Positions 352 through 810 of a stretch of 40,033 nt of DNA are shown one piece after another. Position 1 is the stretch's first letter. Every line of letters starts with the position of its first letter. Made by a program: the position numbers and the translations under genes. The notes under the pieces were generated by a model, which saw nothing but the letters and a program-made list of their open reading frames with translations, was not told where the DNA came from and ran no database searches. Source of the stretch: a virus; UHGV virus genome UHGV-0235137. One strand, 5' to 3'.

Positions 352-810
352 AATTATAATAAGTATTTCAAGATGATGTTTTGAGAGGGCTATTTAGCCC
401 CTCCCTTAAAGAGTTCTTACGAGTATTCTTTAAAGGAGCAGAAGACCAAATTCAGCAAGTACGTATGATATTTTCAAGCCAATTTAATTTTGAAAAAAAT
501 TTAAAACTTGGTCTGGCTCAACAAATTTACAGAAGACCGTTTACAGCAAAACTTAAACAATCTATTTCTCCGGTAAAGAAAAGGCGAAGGTTCGATTCCT
601 TCACTCGGCAGACGTCGAGTTGGTGTAATGGTAGCACTTAAGATGATAAACAACGGTCTGGTAATTATCTTTGTAGATAAGTTATTAAGCTTACCTGTGA
701 GTATGCGACCACAAAGGGTGAAAGGGTAAATTCTAGATTTAAACCCAACAAGGCACATCGCTACAGACCTTAAGCAAGTCTGGGTAGCTTATCTACAAAG
801 ATAATTTAAT

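Follow-up and report, generated by a model that had tools for sequence, protein, structure and literature searches.

What is a long inverted repeat doing between two transfer RNA (tRNA) genes of a bacteriophage? The stretch of DNA analysed here, UHGV virus genome UHGV-0235137 (40,033 nucleotides, hereafter the window), comes from a Felix O1-type myovirus (Felixounavirus, Ounavirinae) and opens within its tRNA gene cluster; the repeat sits in the 459-nt gap that leads from tRNA-Asp to tRNA-Lys(UUU). The original prediction, made from the letters of the window, had offered two explanations for its two arms: operator sites for a dimeric DNA-binding protein, or hairpins flanking an excised RNA. 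We find that the arms pair with each other in a single RNA helix, here called P1, which is under selection. The conserved folded domain that it closes ends 4 nt before tRNA-Lys(UUU). This structured RNA domain of ~144 nt (663-806) is referred to below as element d.

The repeat itself is exact over 19 bp, AATTATCTTTGTAGATAAG being the reverse complement of CTTATCTACAAAGATAATT. The right arm lies where it had been placed, at 788-806, with 106 nt between the arms, but the left arm runs from 663 to 681 and not from 664 to 682 as first given. Each arm also holds the palindrome TTATCT-N4-AGATAA, as had been described, at 665-680 and 789-804. No longer perfect inverted repeat was found in the 40-kb window (loops up to ~340 nt), and the longest repeats in 100 dinucleotide-preserving shuffles measured 10-15 bp, never more. 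The palindrome pattern, with at most one mismatch allowed, was seen three times against an expectation of 0.25.

Read as RNA, the arms are extended by G.U pairs into a helix of 24 bp (663-686/783-806, three G.U pairs included), and this helix closes a multi-branch domain of ~100 nt with three to four hairpins. The folded element has a minimum free energy (MFE) of -48 to -50 kcal/mol and a z score of -5.4 to -6.0, and separate predictions for Moogle-type sequences of only ~60-75% identity give the same topology. Mooglevirus and Suspvirus, the sister genera, keep the order tRNA-Asp, spacer of ~450 nt, tRNA-Lys, with an element that is only ~60-76% identical. Covariation was assessed over three clades, namely Felixounavirus, the Mooglevirus/Suspvirus type and a third clade, L085, that was found with a covariance model of the element (67.7 bits, E = 3e-12); the match there ends at the first base of tRNA-Lys. 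The L085 homologue of a Ro60-like protein encoded upstream of the tRNA cluster, to which we return below, is 63% identical, and the L085 copy of the element carries further compensatory swaps.

In the other clades P1 has 22-23 bp, with 667:802 as a variable mismatch position. Compensatory changes in the Moogle/Suspvirus type turn U-A into C-G, G-C into C-G, U.G into G-C and A-U into G.U. The Moogle type has also lost one base pair from both arms together (A677 on the left, U792 on the right), a paired deletion that leaves P1 intact while each local hairpin gains a bulge. Across the three-clade alignment, double-sided changes are found at 12 of the 33 modelled pairs, P1 contributing 8 of its 22; 99.5% of the cells are paired, versus 25-52% when the partner columns are slid, and in 500 shuffles the count of 12 double-changed pairs was never attained. 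The pairing is also specific for one strand. Conserved U.G and G.U pairs (for example 683:786 and 686:783) would become A.C mismatches on the minus strand or in a DNA cruciform, and the covariance model scores the plus strand at 161 bits versus 48 bits for the minus strand. P1 is therefore a plus-strand RNA helix, co-oriented with the tRNAs, and we consider it very likely that the repeat is the closing helix of an RNA and not a DNA site. The idea of hairpins flanking an excised RNA thus survives in one half: the repeats do enclose a conserved folded RNA, but the two copies make one long helix together instead of a hairpin each.

The same comparison bears on the operator idea. While the arm-to-arm pairing is conserved, the internal palindrome degrades: it is specific to Felixounavirus and is lost or bulged in the Mooglevirus/Suspvirus type and in the third clade. 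Local folding of the isolated arms is weak in Felixounavirus (-3.4 and -3.0 kcal/mol) and amounts to 0 to -1.5 kcal/mol in the Moogle-type and third-clade arms. DNA operators for a dimeric regulator, the main idea of the original prediction, would account for a perfect 6-N4-6 palindrome in each arm, and for a third exact copy at position 81,374 of Felix O1, where ~0.02 would be expected. However, the sister clades let the palindrome decay yet keep the arms paired by compensation, even through the paired deletion that bulges the local hairpins; the G.U pairs would be mismatches in DNA; and the third copy falls within a coding region. The arms are located in a transcribed tRNA spacer, and a promoter scan found no promoter-like site adjoining them, the nearest strong one being at 1060-1088 (the published P45). 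With a palindrome that is not conserved, G.U pairs that mismatch in DNA and no adjoining promoter, the operator reading is unsupported, and we regard it as very improbable. The genome search that had been proposed as a check gave the same picture: besides the two arms, the complete Felix O1 genome has one further exact copy of the motif, inside ORF124, and one-mismatch copies lie within coding regions, so that no regulon of sites came to light. The third exact palindrome, TTATCTGCCTAGATAA (Felix O1 81,374, L090:31374), with its expectation of ~0.02 calculated from base composition, is probably a coincidence. Nor does the stem read as a transcription terminator, a possibility that was considered and rejected: it is rich in A and U, lacks a U tract and went uncalled in the scan.

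The interior of element d is conserved to different degrees in its different parts (Table 1). In the 3' hairpin, two of the five pairs are changed on both sides (G-C to A-U and A-U to U-A), and a hairpin with the loop CYUWWGCAA just before tRNA-Lys(UUU) can be recognised by eye in relatives whose Ro-like protein is ~55% identical. In the central hairpin, ATTCTAGATT is invariant between Felixounavirus and the Moogle type; only the CUAG centre remains in L085. Hairpin A has a GGGG/CCCC stem in L085 with the same loop, AGUAUGCG, and a CAU/AUG stem with the loop GAGUGCCG in the Moogle type. Reading by eye, we tentatively propose that hairpin A is equivalent across the clades, with a conserved loop (G)AGUAUGCG. 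The loop of the 3' hairpin may further pair with the 5' junction in a 5-bp pseudoknot, GCUUA with UAAGC in the Felixounavirus type and L085, and GCUAA with UUAGC in all nine Moogle-type sequences; the candidate pairing extends to as many as 7 bp in L085. This pseudoknot is tentative since it is backed by one compensatory event only.

Table 1. Positions of the RNA features at the start of the window
Feature	Positions	Strand	Basis and remarks
Module 1, bulged stem between tRNA-Met and tRNA-Asn	22-83	+	sequence and fold
tRNA-Asp	274-351	+	ARAGORN/Rfam
Module 2, same bulged stem, GCAGAAGACC...GGUCUGGC, without tRNA-like core	438-517	+	sequence, fold; conserved in Mooglevirus
Module 3, bulged stem ACAGAAGACCGUU / AACGGUCUGGU around a permuted tRNA-like domain	529-662	+	fold, covariation
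P1, 5' strand	663-686	+	holds left repeat (663-681) and palindrome (665-680); MFE and centroid folds, covariation in three clades
Junction GCUUA	689-693	+	candidate pseudoknot partner of the 3' hairpin loop UAAGC (771-775)
Hairpin A, stem UGUG/CACA, loop AGUAUGCGAC	696-713	+	present in folds; cross-clade match by eye
Central hairpin, conserved core AUUCUAGAUU	724-746	+	stem pairs kept between Felixounavirus and Moogle type
3' hairpin CAGAC-CUUAAGCAA-GUCUG, 9-nt loop	764-782	+	no linker to the P1 3' strand
P1, 3' strand	783-806	+	holds right repeat (788-806) and palindrome (789-804); MFE and centroid folds, covariation in three clades
Linker UAAU, 4 nt	807-810	+	separates the repeat-closed element from tRNA-Lys(UUU)
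tRNA-Lys(UUU)	811-886	+	ARAGORN/Rfam

How widely is this RNA distributed? A BLAST search of 50,697 phage records placed element d in ~240-250 of them, all relatives of Felixounavirus, Mooglevirus or Suspvirus. It is present in a single copy, always between tRNA-Asp and tRNA-Lys, and directly 5' of tRNA-Lys(UUU) in every clade found. The region around it (350-1100) is 99.6% identical to Felixounavirus LF82P5 and has matches in 263 phage records. The covariance model gave no significant match to more distant relatives (L086-L088) or to unrelated phages that carry a DUF2828 gene, where only the 3' hairpin and its loop are recognisable, by eye. No Rfam family matches 663-806 at either gathering or permissive thresholds; weak matches to microRNA, small nucleolar RNA and transfer-messenger RNA (tmRNA) families outside this interval were treated as noise. 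ARAGORN calls no tRNA or tmRNA within the element, and nothing on it was found in the literature on small RNAs of Felix O1, on RNase III in phage tRNA precursors or on DUF2828.

Many GenBank records do annotate something in this region, namely a hypothetical protein of the wV8 gp048 type, which corresponds to an 85-aa open reading frame (ORF) on the minus strand (501-758) that overlaps the structured RNAs. The longest stop-free stretch of 95 codons shrinks to 39-61 in Moogle-type sequences, and within Felixounavirus the frame is shifted by indels of 1-2 nt. A protein-coding nature of element d was rejected on these grounds, the minus-strand ORF being broken or frameshifted in many relatives. 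Because the reading frame is not conserved, the ORF is probably a spurious gene call, by which many records mis-annotate the element d region. Element d is a new, lineage-restricted, noncoding structured RNA of a general kind that is already known.

Natural variants of the locus include a loss and exchanges of the element. Salmonella phage SP116 (L034, NC_027329), a viable isolate, is without element d, part of module 3 (one of the bulged-stem modules described below) and part of tRNA-Lys, the route of loss being a recombination that joined the T arm of module 3 to the T arm of tRNA-Lys. ESCO56 (H206) keeps element d while the 5' part of the neighbouring module is absent, and in the phages BPSELC-1, bumzen (H207/H209) and fBSPA4 a module of the Felixounavirus type is joined to an element d of the Moogle type, with a breakpoint near 673-676. 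These losses and swaps make element d an exchangeable, accessory cassette. A unit of 143 bp that is bounded by 19-bp inverted repeats, that is swapped between clades with a breakpoint near 673-676, and that lies in a tRNA cluster with free-standing HNH endonuclease genes could also be taken for a miniature inverted-repeat transposable element or for the relic of a homing-endonuclease insertion, the repeats then being its terminal inverted repeats. However, element d is present at one copy per genome and one syntenic locus in ~250 genomes; no target-site duplication is visible at its flanks; no empty-site alleles were seen, the sole loss being the T-arm recombination just described; and covariation that tolerates G.U pairs points to selection on RNA. 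We regard a mobile-element origin of the repeats as extremely improbable.

The surroundings of element d provide context. The inter-tRNA spacers hold four modules per genome, each with a bulged stem RCAGAAGACC-NN...NN-GGUCUGGY followed by a conserved (U/A)CAGCAA. Three lie in the window and the fourth upstream of its start, as related genomes hold four each. The flanking R and Y covary among the three (G...C at 22-83, G...C at 438-517, A...U at 529-662), and in Felix O1 the two stem motifs are paired only at these modules. A scan of IMG/VR with the module motif CAGAAGACCNNNTNCAGCAA gave, outside the Ounavirinae, only single matches in unrelated, mostly coding sequence; being of that kind and without the 3' partner strand, these are taken as chance matches.

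Module 3, which ends one base before P1, encloses a circularly permuted tRNA-like domain. Inside its long stem follow a V hairpin, a T arm (586-602, GAAGG-UUCGAUU-CCUUC), a closed 7-bp acceptor stem (603-609/614-620) and a D arm (623-637), and a partial match to the tRNA covariance model covers 553-603. The acceptor stem covaries fully over three lineages: ACTCGGC/GTCGAGT, ACACGTT/GGCGTGT and ACCCTTC/GAAGGGT. A functional permuted tRNA was considered and rejected, as Mooglevirus conserves neither the would-be anticodon loop, AUGAUAA, nor the anticodon stem. The order V-T-acceptor-D inside a long stem is the architecture of the bacterial Y RNA YrlA (PMC4201824). Module 3 shares this order, with a stem-loop at the acceptor position, and the modules carry a related, purine-rich bulged stem, GCAGAAG/ACAGAAG, where YrlA has the motif GNCGAAN0-1G. 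The Rfam YrlA family (RF02553) has no match at E <= 10 in 360-812, so that module 3 too goes unscored, and none in the other Ounavirinae modules or in the more distant relatives.

Directly upstream of the tRNA cluster, and outside the window, lies a gene for a 471-aa protein (AYO145A_046, L081:4802-6217; Felix O1 ORF42, 22118-23533), in which Pfam recognises DUF2828 and a DUF7788/vWA domain. Sequence and profile searches of this protein against the PDB found nothing. Its AlphaFold2 model, a confident one (predicted local distance difference test 87, predicted template-modelling score 0.88), was used in a fold search; each of its 12 best PDB matches is a Ro60/TROVE structure and spans the full length, with E values of 2e-8 to 2e-6 and 12-16% identity. 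The gene shares the strand of the tRNAs and stops ~165 nt short of the first one in the cluster; element d follows ~1.2-1.3 kb past the gene end. More than 2,800 phage relatives belong to this DUF2828 family, and several are encoded within tRNA clusters. On an unrelated phage contig of 149 kb, a DUF2828 gene in a tRNA cluster is followed by five modules of similar grammar; for one of these Rfam does give a YrlA match (42 bits, E = 3e-6, L083:7716-7831), 285 nt downstream of the gene. For the homologue in phage Bas63, gp130, a preprint reported a resemblance to Ro60, a position directly upstream of the tRNAs and a counter-defence activity against the ppl system; it also raised the possibility that some of the "tRNA genes" downstream of gp130 might be Y RNAs (PMC11482910).

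Taken together, we think it probable that the repeats are the closing helix of a structured RNA domain in a tRNA/Y-like precursor, and that this domain has a role in processing. Element d would be transcribed on the plus strand within the polycistronic tRNA precursor. Cleavage by RNase P at G811, the 5' end of tRNA-Lys, would leave it as the 3'-terminal domain of the upstream RNA, and the 24-bp helix with its 4-nt tail would be expected to resist 3'-5' exonucleases, so that P1 would define and stabilise that RNA. As P1 presents two turns of near-perfect double-stranded RNA, it may also be a substrate of RNase III. Since element d comes right after a Y-RNA-like module, in a locus headed by a Ro60-fold gene, it is probably either an RNA component of that system or its processing/stability domain.

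Several points weigh against this reading. Independent covariation events are few, as there are only three clades. The P1 sequence, unlike the 3' hairpin, is not recognisable in the relatives with ~55% identity in the Ro-like protein; how the 5' half folds internally is poorly constrained, the base of hairpin A in the MFE fold competing with the candidate pseudoknot. Element d has neither a Ro-binding motif (GNCGAA/CGAA) nor a T or D arm nor an Rfam YrlA score. SP116 is viable without the element, and any function must therefore be accessory. Finally, we infer both the processing and the binding by the Ro60-like protein from established tRNA processing and from context.

Helices made of distant flanking sequences are familiar RNase III sites, as in the stems around E. 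coli 16S and 23S rRNA and at the 5' end of the T4 tRNA cluster. The likeness to P1 lies in distant flanks that pair over at least two turns around a folded RNA in a polycistronic stable-RNA precursor; the difference is that the enclosed RNA is here a small domain and not an rRNA or tRNA, and that P1 is a predicted substrate. A near-perfect helix of at least 22 bp is the classical minimal substrate of RNase III, which raises the question of whether P1 could be a mere processing or spacer helix that keeps the tRNA-Lys/Met/Ile sub-cluster apart from the RNAs before it and has a functionless interior of ~100 nt, much as leader hairpins set off other tRNA sub-clusters here. P1 is long enough for this (~20 bp or more, mostly Watson-Crick, formed by flanking sequences), two simpler hairpins with a related base lie 5' of other tRNAs, a flanking helix surrounds tRNA-Ser, and SP116 dispenses with element d. 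A functionless interior, however, would not be constrained as this one is: the stems covary around a conserved AUUCUAGAUU and the conserved loops AGUAUGCG and CUUAAGCAA. Distant relatives, moreover, retain the 3' hairpin and its loop where P1 can no longer be recognised, while the other leader hairpins do with apical loops of 32-38 nt. A helix of this kind with nothing of consequence inside strikes us as unlikely.

Could element d instead be a Y RNA of the phage Ro60-like protein, a YrlB-like partner of module 3 with P1 as its terminal stem? A stem of the 5' and 3' ends around a large structured interior is indeed the Y-RNA layout, element d abuts the YrlA-like module 3, and its 3' hairpin, UACAG-ACC-UUA-AGCAA-GUCUGG, resembles a collapsed module stem (UACAGAAGACCGUUUACAGCAA...GGUCUGG). 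Location on the same strand within ~1.5 kb of a Ro60-fold gene is the criterion by which YrlA RNAs are found, and bacterial loci often encode two Y RNAs from one precursor (PMC4201824). On the other hand, P1 has no bulged GNCGAA/CGAA-like motif and no Rfam YrlA match is obtained. The helix of the 3' hairpin also differs in the Moogle type (CAAACC/GGUUUG), and it is thus not a sequence-specific copy of the module helix. As two defining features fail, the motif and the covariance-model score, element d is not classed as a Y RNA, and we hold this identity to be quite unlikely.

The probable reading, in which P1 closes a domain of a tRNA/Y-like precursor, can be extended to the locus as a whole. 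Felix O1-type phages may have a complete, divergent Ro60/Y-RNA system that consists of the DUF2828 protein, four Y-like modules and element d, the last as a fifth, structurally distinct RNA of the same particle or as its processing/stability domain; P1 would in that case mark where the Y-like array ends on its 3' side and would couple release of the array to the RNase P cleavage of tRNA-Lys(UUU). We put this forward tentatively, as a possibility that is more doubtful than not. The established systems with Y RNA or YrlA and a Ro60 protein (TROVE + vWA) are alike in that a Ro60-fold gene is followed by same-strand RNAs with a terminal stem and a structured interior. The differences are equally clear. 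Element d has no tRNA-like arms, CGAA-type motif or Rfam score that would join it to YrlA (RF02553), the phage protein carries DUF2828 and not the Pfam TROVE domain and resembles Ro60 at the fold level only, and the RNAs of Felix O1-type phages are interleaved with genuine tRNA genes. Phage examples of Y RNAs come from mycobacteriophages and, as Yrl1/2, from Thermus phage phiLo (PMC4201824, PMC12135203).

Element d may also be set beside another group of phage RNAs. The species 1 and 2 RNAs of T4 (rnaC/rnaD) and comparable RNAs of T5 are small stable RNAs encoded in phage tRNA clusters. Like these, element d is a structured non-tRNA RNA of ~100-150 nt between tRNA genes and on the tRNA strand; presumed release by tRNA-processing nucleases and dispensability in the laboratory would be further likenesses. 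There is no detectable sequence similarity to these RNAs, and the BLAST search described above gave essentially only Felix O1-type phages. To our knowledge, neither a long perfect closing helix of 24 bp nor linkage to a Ro60-like gene is a feature of the T4 RNAs.

The repeat alone is an ordinary RNA helix, and the interest lies in what it encloses, a conserved unannotated RNA family; among the ~250 sequenced enterobacterial phages that carry it are several in use for Salmonella typing and phage therapy. More notable than the repeat are its neighbours, the Y-like modules and the Ro60-like gene. For phages with a Ro60-like protein of the Bas63 type, the analysis points to specific non-tRNA spacer elements, and not to "tRNA genes", as the Y RNA candidates. 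With the coordinates, the covariation-supported structures and the natural deletion and swap variants at hand, the suggestion made in the preprint becomes directly testable. If it is true, Ro60/Y-RNA biology would extend to a large and tractable group of phages of E. coli and Salmonella.

The rest of the tRNA cluster offers a few observations of its own. ARAGORN and Rfam together recognise ~20 tRNAs between 94 and 4621, all on the plus strand. The spacer that holds element d starts with three tight hairpins (365-436, z = -4.9) that are nearly invariant between Felixounavirus and Mooglevirus. Further along, two long hairpins (2255-2344 and 1253-1316) stop 1-5 nt short of tRNA-Leu and of the tRNA at 1322; they have the base sequence TCTTT...AAAGAT..TTTAATG in common with P1, and their apical loops measure only 32-38 nt. 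The pairing of the hairpin at 2255-2344 is kept in Sf14 via compensatory changes. tRNA-Ser(UGA) is enclosed by a 14-bp helix of its 5' leader and 3' trailer (1986-1999 with 2088-2101), fully conserved in Sf14, which would have to open or be cut to give RNase P and 3' trimming access. The free-standing ORFs between tRNA genes at 1418-1766 and 2684-3097 are HNH endonucleases according to the Felix O1 annotation, and their presence varies among relatives, the corresponding sites in AYO145A, for example, being without them. The tRNA at 1322-1400, which Rfam sees (31.7 bits) and ARAGORN misses, is tRNA-Arg(UCU) by synteny with Sf14. Permuted tmRNA scores weakly in Rfam (29.6 bits, threshold 47) over a stretch that runs from inside tRNA-Ile into the next spacer (986-1170); the score is probably driven by the tRNA part.

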